Source: a phage
Assembly: GCA_018175275.1 (NCBI GenBank)
Contig: GCA_018175275.1_4531.1
Reading direction: 5' to 3' (one strand)
Length of the DNA: 64,000 bases
Shown here in pieces: positions 3,365 to 63,149 of this stretch. A program made the translations under genes and the position numbers. The notes under the pieces are model-generated. The model did not search any database, was not told where the DNA came from, and saw only the letters and a list, made by a program, of their open reading frames with translations. Position 1 is the first letter of the stretch. Each line of letters begins with the position of its first letter.

Positions 3365-3374
3365 AGGAGGTTAT

Positions 3375-3731: not shown

Positions 3732-3742
3732 GGAGAAACTTA

Positions 3743-4099
3743 ATGAGCAGTATTGATCAGAACATTTGTTACCAACCTCTCGCTTGGATCGGTGAGGGGC
3801 ATTATGCGCAACGTGTTATCGTCTGTGCTGCGAATAAGTATATTTTGAATAATGGTGAAGAATTAATTATTCCTTGCGTTAGACATGCAAATCCTGTATT
3901 ATCTGCACAATTGAATGTATTGAAAGAAGCAGGTGTGCTTGATAAAGCGCATTGCCTTCCAAACAATCAAGGTTTTATTGATCAATACTACAATTGGTGG
4001 AGTCGTGAAGATGCATACATCATTGCAAAACACGCAGACCAGATTGACTACGAACGTAATGGTCATGATCGTGACCTATTTAGCGAGGGATTATACTAA
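3743..4099 (+). CDS. hypothetical protein
   Basis: 118-aa ORF; AAGGAGA upstream. Confidence 0.55.
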   Translation: MSSIDQNICYQPLAWIGEGHYAQRVIVCAANKYILNNGEELIIPCVRHANPVLSAQLNVLKEAGVLDKAHCLPNNQGFIDQYYNWWSREDAYIIAKHADQIDYERNGHDRDLFSEGLY

Positions 4100-4650
4100 T
4101 GTTTATTACAAGTGATTTGCATTTTATGCACAAACGTATACGAGAGTTTGCTCCTGAATATCGACCGTGGGAGGATATGGACCACATGACAGAAGCCTTG
4201 ATCGAAGCATGGAACAAATGTGCTACTACTCCTGGTGTTAAGATGTGGCATTTGGGCGACTTCTGTTTCGGAACTGAAGAAGATACCCGTAAAATTGCTT
4301 CTCGTCTCCAAGGAGATATCACCTACTGTGTTGGGAACCATGACTACAGCAAACACCGAGAAGTGCTTGCAGAGTATGGTGAAGTGGTGTATTATGACGA
4401 AGTGAAATATCAGAAGCTGTTCTTCGTCTTAAGTCATTACCCTATGGCCTCCTGGAACAAACAAGGTCGTGGATCAATCATGCTACACGGGCATTCCCAC
4501 GGATCTTTCCCTGATGAAGCTTATGGTAAAATGTTAGATGTGGGTTGGGATGCACACGGAAAAATCTTGCATTTTGATGAGATAATTACTATGATGAGTA
4601 AACGAGATATCGTGACTGTAGACCATCACAAAATAATCAAAGGAGAGTAA
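4099..4650 (+). CDS. calcineurin-like metallophosphoesterase (candidate RNA 2',3'-phosphoesterase)
   Basis: Motifs SDLHFMH (D-x-H), GDFCFG (GD), VGNHD (GNHD); TAATG overlap with upstream gene. Confidence 0.7.
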   Translation: MFITSDLHFMHKRIREFAPEYRPWEDMDHMTEALIEAWNKCATTPGVKMWHLGDFCFGTEEDTRKIASRLQGDITYCVGNHDYSKHREVLAEYGEVVYYDEVKYQKLFFVLSHYPMASWNKQGRGSIMLHGHSHGSFPDEAYGKMLDVGWDAHGKILHFDEIITMMSKRDIVTVDHHKIIKGE

Positions 4651-32865: not shown

Positions 32866-33046
32866 AACAGTAGAAGAAGCCGTAAAAGCAGCTTATGATG
32901 CTTTAGCGGAAGCAGAGCAGTTAGCAGACGAGACTGGAGAAGGTTTCCATTTCTCCCCTGAATATGGGATGGGTGGTTATTATGATCCAGAAGATGAAAA
33001 TGAGAATACTGGGACAAATTGGCATCCATCTTCTTTAAGTTGTTAA
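32849..33046 (+). CDS. small acidic protein, W-x-(P)-S-S-(L)-S-C C-terminal family
   Basis: 65 aa ending NWHPSSLSC; GGAGAGGAG upstream. Confidence 0.5.
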   Translation: MTTKFKTVEEAVKAAYDALAEAEQLADETGEGFHFSPEYGMGGYYDPEDENENTGTNWHPSSLSC

Positions 33047-33057
33047 TAGGAGGTAAA

Positions 33058-33333
33058 GTGGGAATCGAAGATATCAAAGGTTATAAGGCGCATACTGACG
33101 ATAAGATTGGCAAGGTTAACGCTATTAAAGATGCAGAAGAGCGTTTAGGTTTAATCTTCAAAGCTTTAGAGGAAGAGTATTGTGAAGCATATCATGGGTC
33201 TTTTGACGGCACAGAAAAAGAATTAGATGTTGCATACGAGCGTATTGATCAAATCCGTTGTGCTATTAAACATTTAAAAGAAGCTAGTATGTGGGCTTGT
33301 CGTTCAGTTTTCCAACCGGAGGAGAAATACTAA
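33058..33333 (+). CDS. hypothetical protein
   Basis: GTG start after TAGGAGGT inside track ORF 33019..33333. Confidence 0.45.
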   Translation: MGIEDIKGYKAHTDDKIGKVNAIKDAEERLGLIFKALEEEYCEAYHGSFDGTEKELDVAYERIDQIRCAIKHLKEASMWACRSVFQPEEKY

Positions 33334-33551
33334 TGAGTGATCGTAATGTTGAAGAATTAACTGAAAAAGCCCAAGCTATTATGGCTTTAGTGGACGAACT
33401 TACAAAAGAAGCTGAAGATGCTGGTTTTGGTCTTAGTTTAGAAGATAACGCAATCTGTTTTGAAGATTGGCAATCCTCTTCTTGTTATGGTGAAGGTGAT
33501 GATGGTTTTGTCGTTAATTCTCAAGGTGTTTGGCATAGTAGTAGCTGTTAA
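33333..33551 (+). CDS. small acidic protein, W-x-S-S-S-C C-terminal family
   Basis: 72 aa ending GVWHSSSC (also internal DWQSSSC); GGAGGAGAAA upstream. Confidence 0.5.
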   Translation: MSDRNVEELTEKAQAIMALVDELTKEAEDAGFGLSLEDNAICFEDWQSSSCYGEGDDGFVVNSQGVWHSSSC

Positions 33552-33560
33552 GGAGAGATT

Positions 33561-33833
33561 GTGGAGTCTGAAGGCGAACTGCTGATAAAAAAGAAAGTTA
33601 AAGAGATGGAACAAGCACAGAGAAAGTTTCGTAAGGAAATTGAAGAACTTTGTGAACAGTTTCAGGAACAAGCTTGGATAGGTGACTACGGCAACGGAGA
33701 AACTTATTACCCTACAGGAACGCCAGCCGCAGATCACTATATTGATTTCATTTGTGAAGATTATGGTGTAGAGTTGGATGAAAATGGTTTAACCACAAGA
33801 GGTGTTTGGATCTCTTCTTCCTCAATGTGTTAG
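33561..33833 (+). CDS. small acidic protein, W-x-S-S-S-x-C C-terminal family
   Basis: 90 aa ending GVWISSSSMC; GTG start after AAGGAGAG. Confidence 0.5.
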   Translation: MESEGELLIKKKVKEMEQAQRKFRKEIEELCEQFQEQAWIGDYGNGETYYPTGTPAADHYIDFICEDYGVELDENGLTTRGVWISSSSMC

Positions 33834-33841
33834 TAAATAAT

Positions 33842-33865
33842 AACCCGCTTCGGCGGGTTTTTTAT
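33842..33865 (+). terminator. rho-independent terminator
   Basis: ACCCGC-TTCG-GCGGGT followed by TTTTTT. Confidence 0.6.
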
Positions 33866-33893
33866 TGACAGGAATCTGGAAGCTTGATAAACT
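33865..33893 (+). promoter_or_regulatory. sigma70-type promoter
   Basis: TTGACA-17 bp-TAAACT immediately after terminator. Confidence 0.5.
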
Positions 33894-33923
33894 TAACCTA
33901 TCAACCAATAGAGGAGAAATATT

Positions 33924-34865
33924 ATGGTGTTAATTGGTAGCCGTGCATTACAAATTCATGCTATGGACATGGGAAAAGACTTGTATCGCCCTTGTGTAGA
34001 TTTAGATTATCTCTGTACAGAACAAGAGTGGGAAGAATTATCAAAAATGTTCTCTCAAGACGAGTTTGTTGAACTTGTAGAACGTAAAGGGAACAAAGGC
34101 CATGTCAAAATGATAGCTGGTGCACATTTGGAATACGATATTGCTTCTCAAGGAGATAGCACAGAAGCTTTGATTAGTTATTGTGAAGATTCTGATGATG
34201 TTCGTCGAACTTACGCTGGACATGTTGTTGCTCCTTTAGATGTGCTCTACCTTCTTAAAATGAGTCATCGTTTTAAAAAGGATAGTCCTCACTTCTTTAA
34301 AACTATGAAAGATATTCATTTCATGCGGTCACTGGGCGCAAAGATCCCAGAAAATCTTAAGAGTATTTATGAGTTGCGTGAGAAAGAAACATACACTTAC
34401 TCTCATCCGAACTTAAACGTAAAAAGTAAAGAGTTCTTTAAAGGTGACGAGGTTCCGTATGTTTATGATCATGATTCTATCCATGAAGCAATCGCGTTAA
34501 TGGATGCTCCAGCATATAAATCTTATATGAAAGATGGAAGTGAAGTTATGACCAGCAAAGAAAAGTTTTTTGCTCAACCAAAACATGTGCGGCTGTTAGG
34601 TGTTTATGAAGAAGCGTGTGTTTTGGCTTTGGAACGTTCACAAATTCCTTTCGGTGAAGAGATCGGAGGTCCAACCCCTAAGCAAAGTTTTATAATGGCT
34701 TTATCTAAAGTCTGCACATCCATCACTAGTGGTTGGTTTAGGGAATATGCTTGGGAAAACTTTTATGTTGTTATTAAGCTATATGAAAACATGGGCGAAA
34801 ACGACTATGTTGAACGTTTTAAAGCTAATCAACATGTAGTAAAGCCTTTTGAAGGAGGTTATTAA
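33924..34865 (+). CDS. hypothetical protein with possible minimal nucleotidyltransferase motif
   Basis: 313 aa; N-terminal GS...DLD arrangement; GAGGAGAAA upstream. Confidence 0.55.
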   Translation: MVLIGSRALQIHAMDMGKDLYRPCVDLDYLCTEQEWEELSKMFSQDEFVELVERKGNKGHVKMIAGAHLEYDIASQGDSTEALISYCEDSDDVRRTYAGHVVAPLDVLYLLKMSHRFKKDSPHFFKTMKDIHFMRSLGAKIPENLKSIYELREKETYTYSHPNLNVKSKEFFKGDEVPYVYDHDSIHEAIALMDAPAYKSYMKDGSEVMTSKEKFFAQPKHVRLLGVYEEACVLALERSQIPFGEEIGGPTPKQSFIMALSKVCTSITSGWFREYAWENFYVVIKLYENMGENDYVERFKANQHVVKPFEGGY

Positions 34866-52878: not shown

Positions 52879-53332
52879 TGCTCTCTCCTCCTAGTTCATC
52901 ATACCATTTCAAAGCGTCTTTTGGAAGCATACCAAAATCTTCTTTCAGTTCTTTTTCAATCTCTTCTTGCATTTCCATCAGCATTTTCAGTTGGCGTATT
53001 TTCTTCCGTAACAAAGCTTCCCGTTCACTGTTGCTTGGTGTTACTTCGTTTGCTGTTACCATTACATATCCTGTCGGAGAGCAAGGAAGATAATCATCAA
53101 TATTTTCTAAAGCATAACGATAATTGGAGTCCAGGAAGTTTACATGCACTCGATCACATCCAAACAACGTGGCACGAAATACTTCATAACGAGTTTCAGA
53201 TAAGATATGTTGCACACAGACAATGCCTACATCATTTTGCACTGCACAGGTTACATTTAATAAACTTGAGTGTTCTTTGACATAATCTACAACACATTGC
53301 ACATGCGCTTCCAGTATAGATGGTTGTCTCAT
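52871..53332 (-). CDS. hypothetical protein
   Basis: 153-aa ORF; GGGGAGGT upstream. Confidence 0.55.
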   Translation of the reverse strand: MRQPSILEAHVQCVVDYVKEHSSLLNVTCAVQNDVGIVCVQHILSETRYEVFRATLFGCDRVHVNFLDSNYRYALENIDDYLPCSPTGYVMVTANEVTPSNSEREALLRKKIRQLKMLMEMQEEIEKELKEDFGMLPKDALKWYDELGGESNV

Positions 53333-53577
53333 TTTCTACCTCCCCATAATGCTAACATTTTATTGAAAATGGAAACGCGTCGTGCGCGAGATGCCATATC
53401 ATAATTCATTCTTTCCGTCTCTGCAAGAAATTGATCTACTGTAATCAACGCTTTTGTCTTCTCTTTCAGAGTTTGCATATTCATCCATTCACATTCAGAG
53501 TACCAATTATCGAAATACAAACTATCAAGAAGATCCATTGCTGCTTCATTTTGTTGTGGTGTGATCATTGCATACAA
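53329..53577 (-). CDS. hypothetical protein
   Basis: 82-aa ORF; start region with two ATGs. Confidence 0.5.
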   Translation of the reverse strand: MYAMITPQQNEAAMDLLDSLYFDNWYSECEWMNMQTLKEKTKALITVDQFLAETERMNYDMASRARRVSIFNKMLALWGGRK

Positions 53578-53580
53578 CCT

Positions 53581-53802
53581 TTAATAAACAATTGCATATT
53601 CGTGAGGAAAGAAAACATAATCTTCCCCTTCTCGTGCATCTATCTCGTCCCAAAACCATTCCTGCACTTCCATCATCTTCGAGAATCGCACATGAGCAAG
53701 CCCACTGTATTCCACCGTAGCTTCCAACACAAGTGGGAATTTTGCACGGGTAAGTCCTTTATAACCACCATCATTCTCAATACGAATTTTCATGCGTTTC
53801 AT
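53581..53802 (-). CDS. hypothetical protein (paralog of 50030..50251)
   Basis: Internal ATG of track ORF 53581..53811; shares EG-DYVFF segment. Confidence 0.5.
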   Translation of the reverse strand: MKRMKIRIENDGGYKGLTRAKFPLVLEATVEYSGLAHVRFSKMMEVQEWFWDEIDAREGEDYVFFPHEYAIVY

Positions 53803-53803
53803 G

Positions 53804-54013
53804 TTATGCATCCTTCAGACCCTTAATAAAGTAACGACCAACCGGATTCCCTCGGAAGTATTCGTTAATGAAATCGATAACACACGTTTCACTGCCTGTC
53901 ACAACGGACGGCTTAAAGTTTTGGAATTCTACAGCTACACGGCTGGCTTTAGCCAGTGCTTGCACACGTGTAGGATCAGTCAAGAACATTGTGACAGTTT
54001 TCAAATTCTTCAT
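53804..54013 (-). CDS. hypothetical protein
   Basis: 69-aa ORF; GAGGAGATG upstream. Confidence 0.55.
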   Translation of the reverse strand: MKNLKTVTMFLTDPTRVQALAKASRVAVEFQNFKPSVVTGSETCVIDFINEYFRGNPVGRYFIKGLKDA

Positions 54014-54062
54014 TTCATCTCCTCATTGGCTATCTGTTATGTCATCCATTATACAAACATCT

Positions 54063-54431
54063 TTATTCAATGCAAGCATTATTTGCATCTTCAATGCGAT
54101 CTTTCACCCATTGAAGACGTAACGTGTTGGTATGACACGCCAAGTTTATACACTCTGAAAGGTAATCCATGCAATCTGCATTGAACGGAAGATTGTAGTC
54201 CAGCCCTGCACATGTAAATTGTTTCCTCATTTCATATTTCAAACGGTCTAACAAATGATCACGCCATCTTCTATCTTCTTCTCTAGTTGCCTCACCAACA
54301 AAATCATCTACATAATCTACCAGACAACCACATAAGCCACTCGTTGTGCGATTCATTGCAGGATAGTTGGCAATCCATGCTTTGTAGAAGCGAAGCAATG
54401 TTGCACTACTCAACGGAATATTATTTGTCAT
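54063..54431 (-). CDS. paralog family A protein
   Basis: Internal ATG of track ORF 54063..54446 with AAGGAGAG upstream; FYKAWIA, GLCGCL, PFN, RLQWVKDRI. Confidence 0.55.
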   Translation of the reverse strand: MTNNIPLSSATLLRFYKAWIANYPAMNRTTSGLCGCLVDYVDDFVGEATREEDRRWRDHLLDRLKYEMRKQFTCAGLDYNLPFNADCMDYLSECINLACHTNTLRLQWVKDRIEDANNACIE

Positions 54432-54765
54432 TTTTCTCTCCTTCATAATCCTGAATTCTATCTAGCACCCATTGTATACGATGTTTGTTTTTATGGCAAA
54501 TATGTTTTTTATGTTCGAAGGTGTATTCCTCATAACCACCTTCATTAAACGGGAAATTGTAATCTAGTCCTGCACCAATAAACTGGGATTTCATCTCTTG
54601 TTGTAGACGAGGTAACAGTTCATCAGGGTATGTTCCCTCTACATACTTAATCAAACATATGCACAAGCCACTCGTTGTGTGACCTTCTACCTCACCAGCA
54701 AGCCAAGCTTTGTAAAACTTCATTAGACGTAAACTACTTAACGGAACATTTTTACTCTCTTGCAT
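54421..54765 (-). CDS. paralog family A protein
   Basis: FYKAWLAG, GLCICL, PFN, RIQWVLDRI; AGAGGAGAT upstream. Confidence 0.6.
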   Translation of the reverse strand: MQESKNVPLSSLRLMKFYKAWLAGEVEGHTTSGLCICLIKYVEGTYPDELLPRLQQEMKSQFIGAGLDYNFPFNEGGYEEYTFEHKKHICHKNKHRIQWVLDRIQDYEGEKNDK

Positions 54766-56360
54766 GACAATCTCCTCTCATCGTTAGCCATCTTTCATGG
54801 CAATCATCAATCACCAACATCATACGATCAATCTTAAGGAATTACAATCGAATTACCATAGGGGATTCCTATCAATTATCCCATATATACCGATTATTTT
54901 TGACACCCCACTCTTGTATAAAAAGTAACCCAAAATATCTACGGGGAGAGATTATTTCGGGACACCTTGTTTCATGGCAATCATGGCAAGAATATCTAAT
55001 AGAATCAATATCCTATGGCAAAAATCATGGCGCATACGTAAGAAGTGCTTAACGCGAATTTTCGGGCCGTCAGGTCCACGCAGCGACAATTCCCAAATAT
55101 CATGCGAATGAGAATAATTATCATTCGTATTCAATGACTTATGCAAGGCTCATGCCAACATAGCGACAAGGTGGGCCACCTGATTATAAATCACACAAAT
55201 ACTTATTTATCAATGGTTTGGCAACTTCATCATATGACGGAACACTGTCAACTAATCCCGCTCATGACAAGCAGACTATTATTTATATGAGAATGATTAT
55301 TATTTAAACGTTTATTAACATAAAAACTAAAATAAATCAAGAATTTTCTGATTTTATTTACGTTTAAGAGAACTTGCTCAACATTCCCGCCTGTGGCGGT
55401 AACATTTCGCCCCCAAAATTATTGACTTTTATTCTATTATGTGCATAGTGTGCAATGTATCGGAATGATGATAATCATCCTCCCATTGCCCCCATAATTA
55501 TTGCCTTGCTAATCTTTTCATTGCTAATCATTACAATGATTATTGTTATTGCGCTAATGTTATGATCTTGGTAATTACATATAATGCTAATAATAAGCCA
55601 GCGCAATAAGTGTAAGCGTCATTACGCTTGCAATTATTGCAAGCTACGCAGTAACAAGAAATAACCGTCACCGATGGTTATGATTGTTGGGGTGTAGTTG
55701 GCTTATTATTAGCTCGCTATGTGTCCGGCATAGCGTGCTAATGATGACTCTGTGAATGATTCGTTTTGTAATGATTTCATTCATGCACTATTTTGCTAAT
55801 AGTTATTATTTTAATGGTTTCGTTTGTTATTGTTCGTTAGTTGGTTGTTTTGTCGTGTTATCGTTATTTTGCTTAGTATTCATCATGGTTTGATTGTTTG
55901 TCGTTATCAATCATCTTGCTATTATTCCTTTGATTATGATTAGTTTGCTTATTGTTTTATGTTGTTTGTTGGTTAGTTGTTGCGAACTATTATCAACATT
56001 ATAATTATGCGCTTATATTGCATAGATAATCATGGGTAGATGATAATGGTTATCATTGCACTAGAAAGGAGGTAAAAGGGTGTTTTTGATGGTTTGTTGT
56101 TGGTTGTTGATCGATTTTAACCGCTCTAAATGGCTCTCTAACAGCCTGTAACCCTGGGAGGTATGGTTATTCGTTTGCTGGTTGATTAGCTCGATACCGC
56201 GATTTATTCAGTTTTGTTCTGTGTCGGTTTTTCATAGGCGGAACCTATTGAGAAGATGATAAATAAACTTGTTTGTTATTGTCTGATTAATAGGGTTAGT
56301 CTATCAACATTGTTCGGGCAAAAAGAAAGGGCGCTTGGTGCGCCCTTGTTTTGTTGTCAA
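54766..56360. other. ORF-free island with iterons, palindromes and strand-compositional skew
   Basis: No ORF >=60 aa with SD on either strand over about 1.6 kb; six (T/C)GCTAAT copies at 55505-55805; C-poor G+T-rich plus strand 55800-56000. Confidence 0.5.
56318..56348 (-). terminator. rho-independent terminator
   Basis: Minus strand AAGGGCGCA-CCAA-GCGCCCTT followed by UCUUUUU. Confidence 0.55.
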
Positions 56361-56594
56361 TTATAACGCTTCATAGATTGAGTAGATCCGGTTTGCCAGG
56401 TCATTACGAAAGCGGAATTTTTCATCACGTTTAATCATCAGATCCTTAAAACCGCATTCTTTCAATGCTTCATTAACTTTATGGCGGCAAACGTTCATAT
56501 TATCCTGCGCGTCACCAATAAACTTATTACTGTGATGCATTGCTTTGATCTCTTCCTCTAACACCAGGGCAACTACTGCGATCATCTTTTTCAT
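56361..56594 (-). CDS. hypothetical protein
   Basis: 77-aa ORF; AGGAAGAGG upstream. Confidence 0.55.
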   Translation of the reverse strand: MKKMIAVVALVLEEEIKAMHHSNKFIGDAQDNMNVCRHKVNEALKECGFKDLMIKRDEKFRFRNDLANRIYSIYEAL

Positions 56595-56623
56595 GCGTCT
56601 ATCCTCTTCCTATTGCGTTCAAT

Positions 56624-56639
56624 GGGGCGTTACCGCCCC
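56624..56639 (-). promoter_or_regulatory. intercistronic RNA stem-loop
   Basis: GGGGCG-GUAA-CGCCCC between co-directional genes. Confidence 0.4.
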
Positions 56640-56648
56640 GCTTATGGT

Positions 56649-56885
56649 TTATTGATTGATGTTATAATGAAAGTTATTTTCTTCAATAGCTTTTAAAATA
56701 AAAGCCGTGATCGCTTTCGTGTCTACTTGTTCGAACGTATCAGAATAGCACCAATAATAATCATCCCCTACTTTCGGCGGGTAAACCTGGACAAGGAGAT
56801 CGCCACCTGGTTGATCTATAAGCTCAACATGCAAGCCGGATGATTCAGCGGTTTTAACGGCGTTTAATACTGTTGCAATACTCAT
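56649..56885 (-). CDS. hypothetical protein
   Basis: 78-aa ORF; AGGGAAAGA upstream. Confidence 0.55.
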   Translation of the reverse strand: MSIATVLNAVKTAESSGLHVELIDQPGGDLLVQVYPPKVGDDYYWCYSDTFEQVDTKAITAFILKAIEENNFHYNINQ

Positions 56886-56905
56886 AATCTTTCCCTTTCT
56901 GATGT

Positions 56906-56921
56906 GGGGCGTTGCCGCCCC
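56906..56921 (-). promoter_or_regulatory. intercistronic RNA stem-loop
   Basis: GGGGCG-GCAA-CGCCCC between co-directional genes. Confidence 0.4.
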
Positions 56922-56929
56922 TTTGTTGA

Positions 56930-57229
56930 TTAGATCGCTGTTTCCAGTAGTTCGGCTAACGTCTTACCGCCTGATAGTTGGTCTAACGTTTGCTCTTCTG
57001 GCAAGAAATTAGCTGATATTAAACCGACTTGATTCCCTTTGTGCCAGTTAGCCTGGCGGATGATTCCATCCTTTAAGGATTTTACCGCCATTGTGCAACC
57101 GTCGCCAAATGATTCATTTTTATGGTCCATCACTTCATAAGCGCCCAGTTTGCTGCTGTTAGGCACCATTAACGCGAACACATCACCAACAACCAGTTTT
57201 TCTACGGTAACAATAGCGATAGTTTCCAT
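56930..57229 (-). CDS. hypothetical protein
   Basis: 99-aa ORF; GAGGAAAA upstream. Confidence 0.55.
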   Translation of the reverse strand: METIAIVTVEKLVVGDVFALMVPNSSKLGAYEVMDHKNESFGDGCTMAVKSLKDGIIRQANWHKGNQVGLISANFLPEEQTLDQLSGGKTLAELLETAI

Positions 57230-57244
57230 TTTATTTTCCTCATT

Positions 57245-57305
57245 ATCGGCGGCACCATTGCCGCCCTACGTGGTAAATATTAGCACACTGGCGATCTGTG
57301 TCAAT
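57245..57305 (-). promoter_or_regulatory. PeSL-like cassette (early promoter + 5' stem-loop)
   Basis: Minus strand TTGACA, TAnnnT-type -10, GTAGGGCGGCAATGGTGCCGCC hairpin. Confidence 0.55.
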
Positions 57306-57310
57306 ACTTT

Positions 57311-57697
57311 TTATTCAATATAAATCAAATTATCTTCACCAATGTAAGCCGACACGTTCGGCATAAACTTAGCTGCATTTGTTAGGCGGTTCGCCGTGTT
57401 AGTGGTGTATATTTCAGGGCGATCCCAAAATCCTACGCCGTGACCGTTACGGGTAAAATGTAAATCATTCCCGATCTGGTTGGCTGTTGCGCCGTCGCTC
57501 ATTGCCTCAGAGATAGCGGCAAGATTAGCATTAATAAAGGCTGTTACATCCTGGGCGATCCGTTCGTCCGCGCTAGGAGAAAAATCATAATCGTCTAAGT
57601 TATCAATAAAATTACCTTCATGATCCCTGGCTGATTCAGCAAAAATAAAGGCTTCTTTATAGCCGTTGATGATTTCAATAATGATTTCTGTTTTCAT
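57311..57697 (-). CDS. hypothetical protein
   Basis: 128-aa ORF; start overlaps upstream stop. Confidence 0.55.
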   Translation of the reverse strand: MKTEIIIEIINGYKEAFIFAESARDHEGNFIDNLDDYDFSPSADERIAQDVTAFINANLAAISEAMSDGATANQIGNDLHFTRNGHGVGFWDRPEIYTTNTANRLTNAAKFMPNVSAYIGEDNLIYIE

Positions 57698-57909
57698 GCT
57701 GTACGCTCGACAATAATAATGGTTTGCGGTATCTCGTTTTCTACTACTAATAAGGCTTTTTTCTGCGTGATAGATATTTTAACACGTTGTAAAGTAGCGG
57801 TAAAATCTTTCATTTCATTATGCGCGGATTTAGTGCAATGCCAGATCTCAGGCTTACCTATTTGCAAGCCGCGTAAAAATTCTGTTTTACCTGTCTTATT
57901 CGTGATCAT
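57694..57909 (-). CDS. hypothetical protein
   Basis: Internal ATG of track ORF 57694..57918 with AGGTGA upstream. Confidence 0.5.
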   Translation of the reverse strand: MITNKTGKTEFLRGLQIGKPEIWHCTKSAHNEMKDFTATLQRVKISITQKKALLVVENEIPQTIIIVERTA

Positions 57910-57919
57910 TTGATTCACC

Positions 57920-58024
57920 TTAACCGATACCGTGGGAAGATAGGATCATATTAGCCATAGTTGCAACCACTCCAACCGATAACGCCAGGCCCACTATTAC
58001 AACCGTGAAAATTTTCTCTAACAT
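57920..58024 (-). CDS. small hydrophobic peptide (about 34 aa)
   Basis: Not in track; directly downstream of PeSL; MLEKIFTVVIVGLALSVGVVA. Confidence 0.3.
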   Translation of the reverse strand: MLEKIFTVVIVGLALSVGVVATMANMILSSHGIG

Positions 58025-58039
58025 GATTCTACCCTCATT

Positions 58040-58105
58040 AATGGGCGTTGCCTTATTGCCCCGCCCTATGTCGTACACTTTACCAGATAACCGCGTATTG
58101 TCAAA
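58040..58105 (-). promoter_or_regulatory. PeSL-like cassette (degenerate stem)
   Basis: Minus strand TTGACA-16-TAAAGT then GGGCGGGGCAATAAGGCAACGCCC. Confidence 0.5.
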
Positions 58106-58300
58106 CTATTTTTTACAAGGGATCAGTAAACTCCTTGCTACTGCTTCACGTAAACCTTTACTTTTTATTAGATCTATTGTTGCAGGGTGGCAAGTAAAAG
58201 CCTTTGACCATTTTTGATCACCTGGTTTACGGGCGAAAATGTATACTTCCCCGTCGATTTCATCCCAACGAGTATTGCTTGTTAATTTTTTAAGCGCCAT
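58106..58300 (-). CDS. hypothetical protein
   Basis: Internal ATG of track ORF 58106..58330, whose first 10 codons lie in the PeSL hairpin. Confidence 0.5.
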   Translation of the reverse strand: MALKKLTSNTRWDEIDGEVYIFARKPGDQKWSKAFTCHPATIDLIKSKGLREAVARSLLIPCKK

Positions 58301-58319
58301 GATGATTTCTCTTTTAGTT

Positions 58320-58380
58320 GTGAGCGGCACTATTGCCGCCCTACGAAATACATTCTATCAAGTAATAAACTATTGTCAAG
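58320..58380 (-). promoter_or_regulatory. PeSL-like cassette
   Basis: Minus strand TTGACA-16-TAGAAT-7 nt-GTAGGGCGGCAATAGTGCCGCTCAC. Confidence 0.6.
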
Positions 58381-58564
58381 ATTTATTTTACTTCCCAAAC
58401 GGAAAATTCGCTGCCTGTTGGGATCATCTTTTTAATCTTGTTTGCTGCCGCTACCAGGTCAACGGCTTGCACTGTAATAATATAACCAATTGTTGAGGCT
58501 GTTGCGTTGAAAGTTTTCATTATATTACCCTTTAATACAGGCGGGATTAATCCCGCCTTGTTGA

Positions 58565-58735
58565 TTACTCTTCATCGTTGCCGTTATAGTATTCAATGCC
58601 GTTTTCATCGGTTACGGTGATGTTAACGCCACCGATAGCAACACGATCACGGGCAAACGTCATAGCTTCATTTAAATCTTCAGACCAAAAAATATTGTGA
58701 CCTTTGCGTGATACATAAAACATAGTCGGGATCAT
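58565..58735 (-). CDS. hypothetical protein
   Basis: Internal ATG (residue 29) of track ORF 58565..58819; upstream part is the PeSL. Confidence 0.5.
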   Translation of the reverse strand: MIPTMFYVSRKGHNIFWSEDLNEAMTFARDRVAIGGVNITVTDENGIEYYNGNDEE

Positions 58736-58754
58736 GATTTGTTTCTCTTCTGTT

Positions 58755-58820
58755 ATGAGCGGTGGACCATTCCGCCGCCCTATGTGGTAAACTTTACTAC
58801 GTTGTTTGCCTGCTGTCAAA
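58755..58820 (-). promoter_or_regulatory. PeSL-like cassette
   Basis: TTGACA plus GGGCGGCGGAATGGTCCACCGCTC hairpin. Confidence 0.55.
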
Positions 58821-59105
58821 TTATTTTTTAATGTTTTGCCCTACAAAATTGATCACTTCCTTAAGCTGTCTCTCTGTCATGATCGTACCTGGTAATTCCT
58901 CTTTAATTTCTTCCGGTAAATAAATATTACCACGCCAGGTTAACAAACAACCGTTTTGATCTTCGCAGATAGAATAGGAAAACATCCATTCGCAATCATT
59001 TTCAAGCTCCCAAAAACACAAAAAGTCTTCTTTCCCTAAGTTTTCAACGGTTAAACATAATCCGCGACGTGCTGCATAATTACTTAGGCTTTTTGTGATT
59101 TTCAT
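58821..59105 (-). CDS. hypothetical protein
   Basis: Internal ATG (residue 18) of track ORF 58821..59156; upstream part is the PeSL. Confidence 0.55.
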   Translation of the reverse strand: MKITKSLSNYAARRGLCLTVENLGKEDFLCFWELENDCEWMFSYSICEDQNGCLLTWRGNIYLPEEIKEELPGTIMTERQLKEVINFVGQNIKK

Positions 59106-59121
59106 GATTTTTCTCTCTTCT

Positions 59122-59183
59122 TGTGAGCGGCACCATTGCCGCCCTACAAGATACATATTACCAGACTAAGCCGACTTGTCAAA
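59122..59183 (-). promoter_or_regulatory. PeSL-like cassette
   Basis: TTGACA, GTAGGGCGGCAATGGTGCCGCTCACAA. Confidence 0.6.
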
Positions 59184-59293
59184 CTATTTTTTCTTTTTCT
59201 TTGCTTCCAACCGTCTAAGGTTACGGCTTGACTTATTGCGCAAGGCGCTTAGATCGTCGTACCCTTTCCATGCTTGCATATCTTTCGGATTCA
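59183..59293 (-). CDS. small basic protein (about 36 aa)
   Basis: Not in track; GGGGA upstream of ATG; Lys-rich tail. Confidence 0.3.
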
Positions 59294-59303
59294 TGTTATC
59301 CCC

Positions 59304-59465
59304 TTACTTGTTAGCCGGATTATATGCCAGGACCGCGCCGCTTGCTTTCACGCTTTCCGCTTCATAGTTGCGCAGATCGTTTTCTGTAAGGTTGAGCGCG
59401 ATCACTTCCTCGATCTCAACGTCAGCGGCAAGGGCGATCTCTTTGATAATGTCTGTTGTTTTCAT
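59304..59465 (-). CDS. hypothetical protein
   Basis: Internal ATG of track ORF 59304..59504 with AAGGTG upstream. Confidence 0.45.
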   Translation of the reverse strand: MKTTDIIKEIALAADVEIEEVIALNLTENDLRNYEAESVKASGAVLAYNPANK

Positions 59466-59475
59466 AGTACGCACC

Positions 59476-59595
59476 TTATAAGATGATTGATAAGATAGTG
59501 ACAACGAAAGTGATTATACTGATGGCAAATGTCATCTTTTTACCTTCGGATACTGCCGGATTTTCTACCGTGTATTCTACTATGTACTTGCTCAT
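59476..59595 (-). CDS. small membrane peptide (about 39 aa)
   Basis: Not in track; hydrophobic C-terminus FAISIITFVVTILSIIL. Confidence 0.3.
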   Translation of the reverse strand: MSKYIVEYTVENPAVSEGKKMTFAISIITFVVTILSIIL

Positions 59596-59614
59596 CGTGT
59601 AATCCTCTCGTTTG

Positions 59615-59690
59615 CTTTGAGAACTATTCCCGCCGCCCTATGAATTAAATATACACTATCTGAAAATGATTGCAAGCCTTTTTCTAAATT
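59615..59690 (-). promoter_or_regulatory. PeSL-like cassette (degenerate)
   Basis: TTGCAA-18-TATTTA then TAGGGCGGCGGGAATAGTTCTC. Confidence 0.45.
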
Positions 59691-59692
59691 AT

Positions 59693-59977
59693 TTATGCAG
59701 TAAACAAACCATCATTTACAACGGCGGCGATGATCTCCCGTGCCATTGATTCAGGGAAAGGGGCGCTATAGTCCTGGCTTGTCTCATCGGTATCAGTGAT
59801 CCAATGATAAGCTAACGAGTAAAAGCCTTTACTAACTGTTTTCAGTGAGATGATGATCACTCGGTCAAGCTTATTGGTGAATGTTGCCGTTAATGTGTTA
59901 CCCTCCTGCGTCATGTTGGACAAGTAAGCGGGATCATTAATCAGGGAAAACATTAGCACGATGTTAGCTTTACTCAT
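59693..59977 (-). CDS. hypothetical protein
   Basis: Internal ATG (residue 11) of track ORF 59693..60007 with GAGGA upstream. Confidence 0.5.
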   Translation of the reverse strand: MSKANIVLMFSLINDPAYLSNMTQEGNTLTATFTNKLDRVIIISLKTVSKGFYSLAYHWITDTDETSQDYSAPFPESMAREIIAAVVNDGLFTA

Positions 59978-59994
59978 GATTGCATCCTCAAAGG

Positions 59995-60055
59995 GGCGCG
60001 GCACCATTGCCGCCCTACGCGATAACTATAACACAATATAAAACAGGATCAACCT
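59995..60055 (-). promoter_or_regulatory. PeSL-like cassette
   Basis: TTGATC-16-TATAGT then GTAGGGCGGCAATGGTGCCGCG. Confidence 0.55.
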
Positions 60056-60261
60056 TTATTTTTCCACGGTGTCAGCTTGTTAATCATTGGTGATAAATAG
60101 CGTTTACCAACGTAAAACAGTACGCCAACTGATGCAACGGCGGCGATCTCATGTAAGGAGGAAGGTCGCGCGGTGTCATAGTAGGTACCAATAATAGCAA
60201 TAGCGGCTACTGCGGCAATGTCTGTAATAATTTTTTCTTGTTTTGTTGTGATAGTGGTCAT
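60049..60261 (-). CDS. small hydrophobic protein
   Basis: 70 aa; IAAVAAIAIIGTYY and VASVGVLFYV segments. Confidence 0.5.
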   Translation of the reverse strand: MTTITTKQEKIITDIAAVAAIAIIGTYYDTARPSSLHEIAAVASVGVLFYVGKRYLSPMINKLTPWKNKG

Positions 60262-60277
60262 AATGTTTTTCTCTTTT

Positions 60278-60340
60278 ATGTGGTCGGGAACTATTCCCGC
60301 CCTACGTGATACATCTTATCATACTTGGTTATGCTGTCAA
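60278..60340 (-). promoter_or_regulatory. PeSL-like cassette
   Basis: TTGACA-16-TAAGAT-7 nt-GTAGGGCGGGAATAGTTCCCGACC (compensated stem). Confidence 0.6.
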
Positions 60341-60346
60341 CCGTTT

Positions 60347-60532
60347 TTAAAGATATTTTATGCTAATGACGTTTTCAGGTTTAACCTTGTTGTGATGTGC
60401 ATCAACATAGATCAAACCATCGTCAGAAAAGCCCAGGATCACGCCCTGCGCGATAAAACCATACGCATCACGGTAACGCACGGCTATTTTTAATGTTGCG
60501 TTGTAGGCTGTTTTAAGCTCGTTTAAAGTCAT
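60347..60532 (-). CDS. hypothetical protein
   Basis: 61-aa ORF; GAGGAT upstream. Confidence 0.5.
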   Translation of the reverse strand: MTLNELKTAYNATLKIAVRYRDAYGFIAQGVILGFSDDGLIYVDAHHNKVKPENVISIKYL

Positions 60533-60551
60533 TTTTGTTTATCCTCTACAT

Positions 60552-60582
60552 GTAAAAAGAAAGGGCGCTTGATGCGCCCTTG
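60552..60582 (-). terminator. terminator-like hairpin (near-duplicate of 56318-56348)
   Basis: AAGGGCGCA-UCAA-GCGCCCUU then U-run on minus strand. Confidence 0.45.
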
Positions 60583-60588
60583 TTATGT

Positions 60589-60735
60589 TAATCCTCTAAA
60601 TCCATCCAATTATATTTGTCACTCTTCCCGCGCTTTGTTTTATTGCGCTTGTCGCCTTTGCGGATCACTTCCTCGTTCCAGGCCTTGCGGATCTTGGAAG
60701 ATTGAATTTTTTCTGCGCGATTAGATGTATTCATT
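60589..60735 (-). CDS. small basic protein (about 48 aa)
   Basis: Not in track; GAGGAAACAAA upstream; K/R-rich. Confidence 0.35.
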
Positions 60736-60749
60736 TTGTTTCCTCTTCA

Positions 60750-60808
60750 TATGAGCGGCACCATTGCCGCTATATTGTTAATTTAAACTGTTTTGTAAAA
60801 TTGTCAAG
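60750..60808 (-). promoter_or_regulatory. PeSL-like cassette (degenerate)
   Basis: TTGACA plus GCGGCAATGGTGCCGCTCA hairpin but no GTAGGG box. Confidence 0.45.
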
Positions 60809-60813
60809 GTTTA

Positions 60814-61167
60814 TCATTCATAAGAGCAAGCAAGGATCACGCCTGCAATATAAAGCCAATAATTTTCCCTTTCTCGTTGGATTTTATCATCGCTGCTATT
60901 CTCTTTAATGTATCCCCAGGATGTTAACAGGCGATCAATTTCCCAATATTCGAAAGCGATATTGATATCTGATGGCAAGCCTTGTAACCATGATGCAAGT
61001 GCTTTAACAATACTATAATTAAAACGTGATTGGTTATCAGGGTACCAGTACTCGGAATTAAAACGGCGCATCAATTCCGCGATCTTCTCTTTTTCGGTTG
61101 TAATACCGTAATCATTAAAATCGATAGCGGCAAGGATGTACTCTTTAATTGCATTTTGTGCTTTCAT
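60814..61167 (-). CDS. hypothetical protein
   Basis: 117-aa ORF; GAGAGAAAG upstream. Confidence 0.55.
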   Translation of the reverse strand: MKAQNAIKEYILAAIDFNDYGITTEKEKIAELMRRFNSEYWYPDNQSRFNYSIVKALASWLQGLPSDINIAFEYWEIDRLLTSWGYIKENSSDDKIQRERENYWLYIAGVILACSYE

Positions 61168-61184
61168 GGTCTTTCTCTCTTTTT

Positions 61185-61245
61185 GAGCGGGAAACCATTT
61201 CCCGCCCTATGTGTAACAGTTTACTAAAAATTAAATCGGTGTCAA
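61185..61245 (-). promoter_or_regulatory. PeSL-like cassette
   Basis: TTGACA-16-TAAACT then TAGGGCGGGAAATGGTTTCCCGCTC (compensated stem). Confidence 0.6.
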
Positions 61246-61248
61246 GCT

Positions 61249-61470
61249 TTATTTTGTTACTACCATTTGGTACCCTGTTTCAATGTTGCTAAACACTGTT
61301 ATCCCGTCCTGACGTTCACTCATTAGCATACAAGGCGCTAACATCCTTTCTACTGCCTTGCACTCATTATAAGCGGCGGTGATGTCTCCTGCTGCCTTGT
61401 CTTCTGTAGTAAATGTCTCGTTTACGTAAACCTGACCAGCAACAACGGCGACAATAGCAAAAGTAATCAT
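61249..61470 (-). CDS. hypothetical protein
   Basis: 73-aa ORF beginning MITFA; AAGGAAAC upstream. Confidence 0.5.
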   Translation of the reverse strand: MITFAIVAVVAGQVYVNETFTTEDKAAGDITAAYNECKAVERMLAPCMLMSERQDGITVFSNIETGYQMVVTK

Positions 61471-61544
61471 GATGTTTCCTTGTTAATAGTGGTTTCTCTT
61501 CTCTATAGCGCCCATTATAAGGCGCTATAACGAAAAGTCAACGA

Positions 61545-61712
61545 TTATTTTTTAAGGCTTAAAGTACCTAACTTGTCAGCATGACGCAGACCAGGGAAGA
61601 TCCATTTGCCTGATTTATCTTTTACCGGAGCTTTAAGCGTAGCGCCCAGGTTGGCGGCGTTAACTTTACGTGCAACGTTGCGAGCGGCTTCACGGGTAGC
61701 GAAAGTGATCAT
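61545..61712 (-). CDS. small basic protein (about 55 aa)
   Basis: Not in track; begins MITFA like the downstream gene; GAGGAAAAC upstream. Confidence 0.4.
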   Translation of the reverse strand: MITFATREAARNVARKVNAANLGATLKAPVKDKSGKWIFPGLRHADKLGTLSLKK

Positions 61713-61729
61713 GATGTTTTCCTCTTCTC

Positions 61730-61800
61730 TTTGTTAGGCGGTTGGCTATTCCACCGCCTTGATGAATACAGTTTACTTTATTTTTGCAGTATTGCAAGCG
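61730..61800 (-). promoter_or_regulatory. PeSL-like cassette (variant)
   Basis: TTGCAA-16-TAAACT then GGCGGTGGAATAGCCAACCGCC. Confidence 0.5.
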
Positions 61801-61803
61801 GTT

Positions 61804-62019
61804 TTATGAAATAATTGTCAAAGTAAAATTGTAATCCTTTGACAGTTTATATTGCACCTTGTTACCATAGTAGTCACCTTTACGTAAAGATCCACGAATA
61901 CCGATAACATCCTTCACGTCTTTTAAATTTTTCACGCCTGTAATGTCTTTATTGAAATACTCGTCATCTGAAAATAAAACTTGACTTGCATTTTTCAGTA
62001 AAGTGCGGATATTAGCCAT
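61804..62019 (-). CDS. hypothetical protein
   Basis: 71-aa ORF. Confidence 0.5.
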   Translation of the reverse strand: MANIRTLLKNASQVLFSDDEYFNKDITGVKNLKDVKDVIGIRGSLRKGDYYGNKVQYKLSKDYNFTLTIIS

Positions 62020-62039
62020 CGTGATAATCTCTCTTCTGT

Positions 62040-62101
62040 TGTGAGCGGCACCATTGCCGCCCTATGTAATATATTCTACTCTTTTTCTTTCCGGTGTCAA
62101 C
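62040..62101 (-). promoter_or_regulatory. PeSL-like cassette
   Basis: TTGACA then TAGGGCGGCAATGGTGCCGCTCAC. Confidence 0.6.
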
Positions 62102-62110
62102 AATCTTTTT

Positions 62111-62338
62111 TCAGATTAATTCATCCAGGCACAACAAGCGATCAACGTTGAGATCGGTTAGGCTGATGGTTGGCACCTGGTAGGATTCGATGTACTCGAC
62201 GCTCGCATATTCTCCAAAATTAGCAATAGCCCACTTATTCAAGATCTCACATACATCATTAATCTTTTTGTTTGTTACAACTGCTACAACCTGGGAACTG
62301 CCAACGGTGCCGGATACACGAACAATATTGATAGCCAT
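62111..62338 (-). CDS. hypothetical protein
   Basis: 75-aa ORF beginning MAINI. Confidence 0.5.
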   Translation of the reverse strand: MAINIVRVSGTVGSSQVVAVVTNKKINDVCEILNKWAIANFGEYASVEYIESYQVPTISLTDLNVDRLLCLDELI

Positions 62339-62357
62339 AATCTTTAATCTCTCTGCT

Positions 62358-62423
62358 GTGAGCGGGAAACCATTTCCCGCTCTCTATGTAATACAGTTTA
62401 CTCTTTTTATTCGTGCTGTCAAT
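62358..62423 (-). promoter_or_regulatory. PeSL-like cassette
   Basis: TTGACA then GAGCGGGAAATGGTTTCCCGCTCAC. Confidence 0.55.
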
Positions 62424-62428
62424 GCTTT

Positions 62429-62794
62429 TTATAAATCTTTTTTACGTTTAACATCGCTCGCATGACTGTATACAGTGATCCCATTATCACGGCAAAAACG
62501 GGAAAGATACGCGCCGCGTGAAAACTCTTTACCTTCCATATTAATAACCTTGCTAAATTCTTCCAGGGCGACGGTATCAAAATGATCACCATAACCATAT
62601 TGAAACGGAACGTTAACCACCTCGATCAGTTTACCGCCGATCTCAACGTCAACCATTAAAGAAAAATATGTGTTACCGTAGGACTGTTGAAACCAACGAC
62701 GGGCGCTAATATGCACCGCCTCAATGCTGGATAGTTCAATTTTAGCCGTGTCAGCCAGGGTAGCATAAGAGGAAACATTGATATTAATAGCCAT
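62429..62794 (-). CDS. hypothetical protein
   Basis: 121-aa ORF beginning MAINI. Confidence 0.55.
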   Translation of the reverse strand: MAININVSSYATLADTAKIELSSIEAVHISARRWFQQSYGNTYFSLMVDVEIGGKLIEVVNVPFQYGYGDHFDTVALEEFSKVINMEGKEFSRGAYLSRFCRDNGITVYSHASDVKRKKDL

Positions 62795-62804
62795 GATATT
62801 ACTC

Positions 62805-62862
62805 TCTTTTTTGGTTAGTGGGAAGTATTCCCGATAAAAGTTATTATGCTTATACTATCACT
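62805..62862 (-). promoter_or_regulatory. PeSL-like cassette (variant stem)
   Basis: TTGACA then CGGGAATACTTCCCAC. Confidence 0.5.
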
Positions 62863-62892
62863 CATTGTCAATAGTATAAGACTAAAACTTTT

Positions 62893-63072
62893 AACGATAA
62901 TCGTTATAGGCTTTATTGACCTGGCGAATATAGCATTCAAAAGCTAGATCAATAGATTTATATTCACGGATATAATCACCATAGGAAACCACATACATTT
63001 CTATAGCTTCCTCATATGCCAGGATGATAGAATCTAAACCTATAATCTCAGTTTTTGCAATGATAGTCATGA
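62893..63072 (-). CDS. small protein (about 59 aa)
   Basis: Not in track; AAAAGG upstream; directly downstream of a PeSL. Confidence 0.4.
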
Positions 63073-63087
63073 TGTTAACCTTTTATT

Positions 63088-63149
63088 GTTGGCGGCACCA
63101 TTGCCGCCCTACGTGATAAACTATACCAGAATTTTAAACAGTGTCAACC
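63088..63149 (-). promoter_or_regulatory. PeSL-like cassette
   Basis: TTGACA then GTAGGGCGGCAATGGTGCCGCC. Confidence 0.6.

Follow-up and report, generated by a model that had tools for sequence, protein, structure and literature searches.

A non-coding island of a Phapecoctavirus genome is very probably the collapsed genome terminus and carries a conserved, strand-specific fold beside the terminal repeat

In this work, we have used comparative and structural sequence analyses to decipher the nature of a non-coding island present at positions 54766-56360 of a 64-kb stretch of phage DNA (the whole stretch is called the window here; features given without a strand have none assigned). The phage belongs to Phapecoctavirus, the phAPEC8-like E. 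coli myoviruses of the subfamily Stephanstirmvirinae. Our results indicate that the island is very probably the physical terminus region, or concatemer junction, of the linear Phapecoctavirus genome, whose two end copies were collapsed into one by the assembly. It holds a homologue of the direct terminal repeat (DTR) of related phages at 55050..55378, with the same candidate cleavage motif at both boundaries, and to the right of the repeat a flank of conserved non-coding elements, foremost among them a covarying fold of 150 nt.

The position of the repeat is given by relatives that were deposited as linear genomes. The first 329 bases of the linear Schickermooser record are exactly its last 329 bases, a terminal repeat that is reported as 328 bp by Korf et al. 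(PMC6563267), and this repeat maps to window positions 55378..55050 with 97% identity. Two further linear records, deposited separately, lead to the same place: the 328-bp repeat of Mt1B1_P17 maps to 55051-55378 and the 309-bp repeat of KKP 3954 to 55059-55367, so that the repeats of the three phages fall within 55050-55378 at 96-98% identity. In phi92, which represents a sister genus, the annotated 343-bp DTR-L and DTR-R align with both ends of the window repeat, and about 770 bp of non-coding DNA lie between the right repeat and the last gene. Stephanstirmvirinae genomes are described as those that "terminate with direct terminal repeats" (PMC12695924, 2025), and several other phage records start or stop inside the island. 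The gene order points the same way. Schickermooser gene 1, the homologue of 54765-54421, starts 613 nt from the left genome end, and the last gene of this phage with its terminator are the homologues of the window genes and hairpin from 56327 onward; from this order relative to the repeat, the biological orientation is therefore the minus strand of the window. Read on that strand, the last gene is followed by a terminator (56347-56327), by about 950 bp of right-end non-coding DNA (56326-55379), by the DTR, by a leader and then by the first gene, and the repeat lies in the non-coding gap between the last and the first genes of the linear map. Only one copy of the DTR homologue is found in the window, as expected when an assembler has collapsed the two ends. 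The initial annotation did not recognise the island as the physical end of a linear molecule; among the functions it listed as candidates, that of a recombination or packaging site was essentially right, the island holding the DTR homologue and both predicted cut sites.

Both boundaries of the DTR carry the sequence GTTR|AGC in genome orientation (the bar marks the boundary): the junction of the right unique region with the repeat reads GTTG|AGC, and that of the repeat with the left unique region GTTA|AGC. In the window, the DTR/left unique boundary (55045..55056) reads GTGCT|TAACGCG on the + strand, or ...CGCGTTA|AGCAC in genome orientation, and is an island of conservation, while the right unique/DTR boundary block (55335..55384) reads ...TTTAAGAGAACTTGCT|CAACA on the + strand, which gives GTTG|AGC in genome orientation. 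A multi-genus alignment presents both boundaries as conserved blocks within diverged DNA (GTGCT|TAACGCGAATTT and TTTAAGAGAAC..GCT|CAACA on the + strand); block 55335-55384 is conserved as far as the phi92-like phages, whereas identity over the remainder of the DTR falls to about 71% in a divergent clade formed by phiWec186, PsgM04F and an IMG/VR contig. Both GTTR|AGC junctions are exact in Schickermooser and in phi92, and the motif thus spans two genera. Mt1B1_P17 has this junction sequence as well, but since its repeat is given as 328 bp in place of 329 bp, the deposited repeat-to-left boundary falls a base earlier. The island of LL12, a true Vequintavirus, has no GTTR|AGC motif, and the motif is therefore specific to Stephanstirmvirinae. 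Its presence at both boundaries is the pattern expected of a site that is recognised when the repeat is cut from concatemers, and makes GTTR|AGC a candidate for that site.

The DNA to the right of the repeat is better conserved than the repeat itself. Identity to the divergent clade is about 71% over the repeat (55040-55400), 89% over 55560-55770 and 92-93% over 55940-56260, with the neighbouring genes at 81-93%. The phi92-like phages align with 55622-55745 and 55940-56238, and two phages classified in the Vequintavirinae, Av-05 and TH18, align at 56186-56237 and at the terminator, with 55967-56057 aligning in Av-05 only. These alignments indicate that constraint is tighter on the right flank than on the repeat, as would befit cis-acting elements that evolve more slowly.

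The clearest of these elements is a five-helix fold of 150 nt on the + strand (55586..55735), in which a closing helix P1 of 14-15 bp (55586-55600/55699-55713) encloses a hairpin H1 (55603-55640) and an arm made of P2(-P3) and H2 (55643-55698), and a separate hairpin H3 (55715-55735) follows. A search for structure and covariation in related phages had been suggested by the initial annotation; we aligned 11 sequences from five groups (core Phapecoctavirus, the phiWec/PsgM04F clade, phi92-like phages, a Klebsiella phage of the Stephanstirmvirinae and an IMG/VR contig). The RNAalifold consensus has 52 pairs, with 98.1% of the cells paired, and compensatory double changes occur in 12 of these 52 pairs. 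Not one of 500 shuffles reaches the observed values on any measure, and sliding the 3΄ partners by 1-3 columns cuts the pairing to 23-52%. The compensations are found in several helices: in P1, AAGCCA/TGGCTT becomes AACGCA/TGCGTT, ACCGCA/TGCGGT or AACACA/TGTGTT; in H2, ATAACC/GGTTAT becomes ATAACT/AGTTAT or ATTACTATT/AATAGTAAT; and in H3, CGCTATG/CATAGCG becomes CGCTACG/CGTAGCG or GCCTATG/CATAGGC. The perfect palindromes listed in the initial annotation are all present, with a spacer or a central base (AAGCGT-CATT-ACGCTT at 55614, CTTGCAAT-T-ATTGCAAG at 55627 and GGTGG-G-CCACC at 55170), and the two adjacent ones, at 55614 and 55627, are the apical and 3΄ parts of H1. We turned the alignment into a covariance model, which detects the fold once in the window. 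At the syntenic loci of the Vequintavirinae-like phages it finds only 90-nt analogues scoring 18-21 bits, which we rejected as unconvincing homologues of the fold.

The fold belongs to one strand. Four of its G·U pairs never vary, and in another 14 cells a change on one side only has produced G·U; on the minus strand all of these would be A·C mismatches. The minimum free energy is -76.4 kcal/mol (z = -10.0) for the + strand, against -56.5 kcal/mol (z = -6.75) for the minus strand, a difference of 20 kcal/mol. The G·U pairs and this asymmetry therefore exclude a double-stranded protein-binding palindrome and a cruciform. What is predicted to fold at 55586-55735 is a single-stranded + strand molecule, either RNA or single-stranded DNA. 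We lean, without great assurance, towards a non-coding RNA transcribed from the + strand, antisense to the neighbouring genes, which would run from the repeat side into the C-poor tract described below; a single-stranded DNA fold of the lagging-strand template is the less probable of the two. The proposal of a non-coding RNA locus in the initial annotation is partly borne out, by the covariation and the strand-specific folding. Rfam includes phage pRNA and 6S RNA families; a cmscan of 53000-58000 against it (E ≤ 1) returned no match.

Beyond the fold, the + strand is depleted of C and rich in T and G over 55746..56017, where C makes up 11%. The compositional skew noted initially is borne out: 55800-56000 has 9% C, 74% G+T, a GC skew of +0.33 and an AT skew of -0.52, with negative GC skew on both sides of it, and is 72% A+T. 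From the fold to about 56017, the + strand of Phapecoctavirus-like genomes has 9-11% C, and in the phi92-like phages the equivalent interval, of 350-450 nt, has a C content of 5-6%, even though it cannot be aligned with the Phapecoctavirus sequences. This suggests a constraint on composition and not on sequence, for which a + strand RNA that avoids Rho, a rut site on the minus strand, or a zone of priming or unwinding are possible causes. Rho loads on RNA that is rich in C and poor in G. The + strand has the skew of a sense strand (G>C, T>A) over 55500-56300, and because of this skew and of the fold we judge an untranslated, Rho-avoiding + strand RNA to be the favoured explanation.

The island is also unusually rich in palindromes that resemble Fur boxes. 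The whole window was scanned for the 19-bp Fur consensus GATAATGATWATCATTATC with a threshold of at least 14/19 positions; 16 positions reach it, and the island, with 2.5% of the window, accounts for eight of them. In dinucleotide-shuffled versions of the island the mean is 0.23 such sites and eight are never reached (0/500), and several sites are pairs phased by 6 bp, for example 55104/55110 and 56036/56042, as in the hexamer arrays of Fur. Three sites are kept at 13-17/19 in every lineage examined, and all three overlap promoter-like hexamers. Sites A (55104..55128; 15/19 here and 15-17/19 in all relatives) and B (55289..55307; 14/19 here and 17/19 in muut and phi92) are inside the DTR, and site C (56036..56060) overlaps the + strand hexamers TTGCAT-18-GATAAT and TAATCA-18-TATCAT, its sequence AATGRTTATYATT being kept in 13/13 sequences, the Vequintavirinae-like ones included. 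It is probable that these three conserved palindromes are bound by Fur of the host, or else by a protein of the phage with comparable specificity. In the literature searched, we found no publication that links Fur boxes to lytic phage genomes.

How could these elements work together? By analogy with the T7-type DTR phages, we propose that the terminase would cut concatemers at the GTTR|AGC site on either side of the repeat, and that the repeat would be duplicated during packaging, each virion DNA thus receiving one copy at either end. After injection, the host RNA polymerase would start at the promoters of the leader, as in other DTR phages. A + strand RNA with the three-way-junction fold may run from the repeat side into the C-poor tract, which would be Rho-resistant for its lack of C, and the fold may act in end processing, packaging or priming. 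In its full form our proposal is speculative, and we hold it to be rather improbable as a whole: an undescribed RNA of about 150 nt, consisting of a three-way junction, a hairpin and a Rho-resistant C-poor tail, would lie beside the DTR of phAPEC8-like and phi92-like myoviruses and act in concatemer processing and packaging or in the priming of replication, forming a single end module with Fur-type operators that couple it to the iron status of the host.

Several points weigh against this picture. The termini of the window phage itself are placed by homology, at 96-98% identity, and the boundaries of KKP 3954 differ slightly (309 bp), from which it follows that the deposited ends are not all equally precise. 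In the fold, P1 does not vary over its outer 10 bp, and covariation therefore supports only the inner part of this helix. No convincing conserved + strand promoter was found upstream of the fold, only weak and non-conserved sites, and at the other end the + strand tail of the terminator is good only in Phapecoctavirus and poor in the phi92-like and Vequintavirinae-like phages; for these two reasons the RNA reading is not secured. Promoter-like hexamers are common by chance in AT-rich DNA (14 found, 10.8 expected), and our sigma-70 scans, standard as well as conservation-aware, do not discriminate here. The assignment to Fur is a match to a consensus only. Finally, the island of LL12 contains none of the motifs or elements seen in Stephanstirmvirinae, and these elements are therefore not universal to the wider group.

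Which other readings could account for the island? That it encodes small proteins commonly overlooked by gene callers is the least probable. In its favour, the records of ETEC-TG, PsgM04F and WPEC, which were annotated automatically, have between four and eight short 'hypothetical proteins' in the terminal repeat and on either side of it, and a mini-ORF (open reading frame) of 23 codons at 56080-56151 is preceded by a strong Shine-Dalgarno sequence, AAGGAGGT. The longest ORF that overlaps 54766-56360 has, however, at most 64 aa, in agreement with the ORF-free gap seen initially; a PHROG scan of the nine longest or most plausible ORFs of the island gave no family match, and nearly all nine are disrupted by frameshifts or stops in divergent relatives. 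The mini-ORF is not conserved either, as its start is lost in phiWec186 and the sequence is unrelated in phi92. Ordinary coding sequence in homologous phages, the finding that the initial annotation had named as contrary to its view, is not what they show: relatives have no conserved ORF, and the interval is mostly unannotated. The majority of the annotated records listed have no feature at all across it, and phAPEC8, ESCO13 and Schickermooser have the terminator as the sole feature annotated there. On the integrity of the ORFs in relatives and the negative PHROG scan, we rejected the island as protein-coding, and small proteins here seem to us very improbable. One or two trans-acting regulatory RNAs, such as a host-directed small RNA or a protein sponge, could instead be unrelated to end processing and sit here because this is where non-coding space exists. 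The covarying + strand fold and the sense-type skew over 55500-56300 would suit them, as would the conserved blocks at 56110-56240, which are little structured, as the seed regions of small RNAs would be; site C overlaps + strand promoter-like hexamers, as is the case in small RNA genes repressed by Fur, ryhB among them. We nevertheless consider such RNAs doubtful. A BLAST search of 55584-56250 on both strands of 5,426 E. coli genomes, with a sensitivity of 65-70% identity, gave no similarity, shorter seeds of the small-RNA type not being searched; Rfam gave no match, promoter and terminator are not secure in all lineages, and the placement beside the repeat is itself conserved across two genera.

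A different set of explanations assigns the right flank to replication or to transcriptional control. As a replication origin (55400-56300), it would consist of initiator-bound repeats and palindromes, an AT-rich unwinding or priming zone, and the fold as a single-strand signal for a primosome or primase. T7 and T4 have transcription-activated origins, and the AT-rich tract at 55800-56000, of the kind an unwinding element would be, is flanked on both sides by promoter-like sites and is rich in GTT on the + strand; the fold is specific to that strand, which would serve as lagging-strand template when a fork comes in from the repeat. The iterons proposed initially do exist as six + strand copies of YGCTAAT (55507, 55522, 55552, 55585, 55736 and 55794), where dinucleotide shuffles of 55400-55900 give 0.19 on average and none of 2000 reaches six. 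An iteron-type origin is not upheld, however, by their arrangement, since their spacing is irregular (15, 30, 33, 151 and 58 nt), a regular conserved array of repeats of about 17-22 bp is not found, and there is neither a DnaA box in the island (none of the ten TTWTNCACA matches of the window) nor an adjacent initiator gene. The copy with which the 5΄ arm of P1 opens and the copy directly after H3 do not vary between lineages; one more is kept within the Phapecoctavirus-like clade and the other three vary, only three of six being kept in the divergent Phapecoctavirus-like clade. AT-richness also fails to explain why C in particular is lost (C 5-11%, G 17-19%), and the conservation of G·U pairs is a trait seen more in folds of RNA than in those of DNA. 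An origin here therefore seems to us rather unlikely, although such a role can coexist with a genome terminus. We rate still lower the possibility that the C-poor tract acts on the minus strand, as C-rich, G-poor RNA forming a rut site that backs up the terminator and blocks read-through into the repeat and the left early genes. The minus-strand RNA of 55746-56017 is about 18% C and 11% G (17-18% and 5-6% in phi92-like phages), the tract is directly downstream of the conserved terminator on that strand, and its composition is constrained without conservation of sequence, all of which would fit; but a promoter-like site conserved in 13/13 sequences (56142-56114) lies between terminator and tract, which is odd for a pure insulator, and the + strand-specific fold is left unexplained. 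Finally, the GAGAATGATTATCATT palindromes may make the genome end iron-responsive, with Fur repressing the promoters of the repeat and of 56036-56060, or Fur-titrating, with hundreds of replicating copies derepressing host iron uptake. Their excess over shuffles, their 6-bp phasing and the three sites kept over promoter-like hexamers in all lineages speak for it. Against it, AT-rich palindromes that match a consensus could be binding sites for a protein of the phage itself, for instance an early regulator or the small subunit of the terminase, the island of LL12 has no site of at least 14/19, and the literature search was negative. We consider such an iron link rather improbable.

The remaining features of the island can be described in genome orientation, starting from the last gene. 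The intrinsic terminator of this right-end gene (56327..56347, minus strand) is annotated as a terminator in phAPEC8 and Schickermooser, and its minus-strand T-tail (AAAAAGAAAG on the + strand) is kept in 12/13 sequences; in the lineage of the window, the hairpin resembles a terminator on the + strand too. A 56-nt insertion at 56249..56304 is absent from the 12 other aligned sequences and is bordered by short inverted ends, CCTATT...AATAGG. It is followed by a 52-nt block (56186..56237) with no ORF and no fold, which is near-invariant across two subfamilies (88% identity in Av-05 and 85% in TH18) and is non-coding because it carries a 1-nt indel in phi92-like phages. RNAalifold gives the region 56036-56356 only -19.5 kcal/mol with weak covariation, and this 3΄ block is treated here as conserved in sequence and not structured. 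A putative minus-strand promoter, GTTAGA-17-TAAAAT (56142-56114), points toward the repeat and occupies the same alignment column in 13/13 sequences from two subfamilies. Next to the DTR there is a variable spacer (55379..55583) with indels and low identity, which contains three YGCTAAT copies, a lineage-specific Fur-like site (55461-55482) and a GC hairpin (55388-55400) 9 nt outside the repeat boundary. Core Phapecoctavirus genomes carry this hairpin as one of two different sequences (CCGCC-YGT-GGCGG, TATCGC-TAC-GCGATA); in the divergent clade it is weak or missing, and phi92-like phages lack it. On the other side of the repeat, the left-end leader (54766..55049, 284 bp, minus strand) separates the DTR from the first gene (54765-54421) and holds tandem sigma-70-like promoters and the ribosome-binding site of that gene; the promoter-like site TTGCCA-18-AATAAT (54980-54951, minus strand) matches 10/12 positions, and TTGTAA-17-TATGAT (54847-54819, minus strand) is present in 6/6 aligned relatives.

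Some further observations concern the repeat and its flank. Position 1 of the metagenome contig Ga0129312_1007529, which is 99% identical, corresponds to window position 55077, 27 nt inside the boundary at 55050, an end consistent with a physical DNA end near 55050 in the environmental population. In the middle of the repeat, at 55208-55220, TATCAATGGTTTG fits the IHF consensus WATCAANNNNTTR and is kept in phAPEC8 and muut; this site is not significant alone, because the whole window has ten matches. There is no Chi site in the island. The divergent clade does not keep the inverted repeat GGTGG-G-CCACC (55170), which is probably incidental, and the TTATTGTT repeats pointed out in the initial annotation proved unremarkable, as the island has three of the 11 copies in the window. 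In another metagenome contig (ERZ1090862 NODE-37, 3423-4059) the 52-nt block and the terminator are 95-97% Phapecoctavirus-like and the upstream part aligns with Vequintavirinae-like loci, a mosaic that suggests recombination within the right-end flank. Pattern scans of the IMG/VR and JGI metagenomes for the conserved motifs gave mostly chance hits with a handful of true homologues, and a protein-anchored search for the locus gave one locus.

With megablast, 76 phage records match the island, and with sensitive blastn 139; nearly all close matches (91-98% identity) are Phapecoctavirus. Near-identical Phapecoctavirus or Justusliebigvirus genomes were deposited as phages of Campylobacter (B15, A145, C3), Acinetobacter (ABPW7) and Pseudomonas (PsgM04F); such host labels are odd for genomes 79-95% identical to coliphages and may be contamination or propagation artefacts. 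In ETEC-TG (locus 3029-4544), PsgM04F (locus 1473-2946) and the WPEC records, none of the ORFs annotated in the island is conserved as an ORF. ARAGORN finds neither tRNA nor tmRNA. The genes on either side of the island, 54421-54765 and 56361-56594, are both on the minus strand, and chance matches to the AT-rich Fur consensus fall on the + strand only below about 32 kb and on the minus strand only above about 34 kb, which suggests that the coding strand switches at about 33000-34500 and that the island is inside a minus-strand block of about 30 kb. The placement given initially, between minus-strand genes and a 'PeSL array', is correct, the array being formed by the GTAGGGCGGCAATGGTGCCGC stem-loops to the right of the island: seven copies of this motif occur on the minus strand at 57249-63112, where none is expected. 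In phAPEC8 each stem-loop of this type comes after an annotated putative promoter and ahead of small early genes, and two of these promoters are of the host sigma-70 type (TTGACA-N17-TAATAT-like). The stretch 57249-63112 is a T4 'PeSL'-like array of promoters and stem-loops at the right end of the genome.

What does this mean for phages of this group? The apparent gap is a collapsed genome end and not an internal locus, which matters for annotating and orienting phAPEC8-like and phi92-like genomes, as these have been deposited with arbitrary start points and several carry spurious ORFs here. GTTR|AGC offers a concrete candidate for the terminase cleavage motif in a group of phages with wide use in therapy cocktails, and the conserved non-coding elements are a testable entry to how ends are recognised, cut and duplicated in short-DTR myoviruses, a process that is poorly understood outside the T7-like phages. 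A possible link to the host Fur was unexpected. The terminal-repeat region is already known for the subfamily and will not surprise the specialist; the elements of the right flank, the 150-nt fold foremost, then the C-poor tract, the Fur-like sites and the 52-nt block, were found described nowhere in the literature covered, which did not include the phi92 and phAPEC8 genome papers.

The closest known systems are the DTRs of the Stephanstirmvirinae and rV5-like phages (343 bp in phi92, 328 bp in Schickermooser and 459 bp in LL12). The repeats of phi92 and Schickermooser are homologous to that of the window and share with it position, length class and GTTR|AGC, whereas their records and papers describe nothing beyond the repeat, and LL12 shares the architecture and not the motifs. 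In the rV5-like LL12, PhageTerm predicted a 459-bp repeat "in a noncoding region" (PMC6658697), and we find this repeat inside an ORF-free gap of 2.5 kb (MH491969.1 103998-106516); large non-coding termini may thus be general in the supergroup, with differing content. The Fur-like palindromes resemble E. coli Fur boxes (GATAATGATWATCATTATC or arrays of NATWAT hexamers) in their scores of 14-17/19, their overlaps phased by 6 bp and the promoter-like hexamers they cover; they differ in being placed at the genome end of a lytic phage, two of them within the terminal repeat. With iteron-type origins, such as the lambda ori and plasmid origins, the island has in common short direct repeats that adjoin an AT-rich tract, but its 7-mers are irregular, two of them flank helices of the fold, and DnaA boxes and an adjacent initiator gene are missing.

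The fold recalls the pRNA of phi29 in topology only, as a three-way junction of about 120-170 nt whose 5΄ and 3΄ ends pair and which bears two hairpin arms, near the end of a linear genome. It differs from it in having no Rfam match and no evident pair of complementary loops for ring formation, and the phi29 pRNA belongs to protein-primed podoviruses without a conventional small terminase. The concatemer junction of T7 and T3, the description of which is said to go back to Dunn and Studier in 1983 and to Chung, Hinkle and co-workers in 1990, reportedly has a terminal repeat with SRL/SRR arrays and a hairpin palindrome left of the repeat, and phiOR is said to read toward the junction, with the early promoters A1-A3 at the left end. 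Similarly, the island has a short DTR, tandem promoter-like sites of the host type inside the left end, right-side non-coding DNA with short repeats and palindromes, and a promoter-like site that faces the junction. The two systems share no sequence similarity and the window phage is a myovirus that uses the host RNA polymerase; moreover, the right flank of the island is far longer (about 950 bp), and in place of a simple junction palindrome it carries a multi-helix, strand-specific fold 208-357 nt from the repeat.

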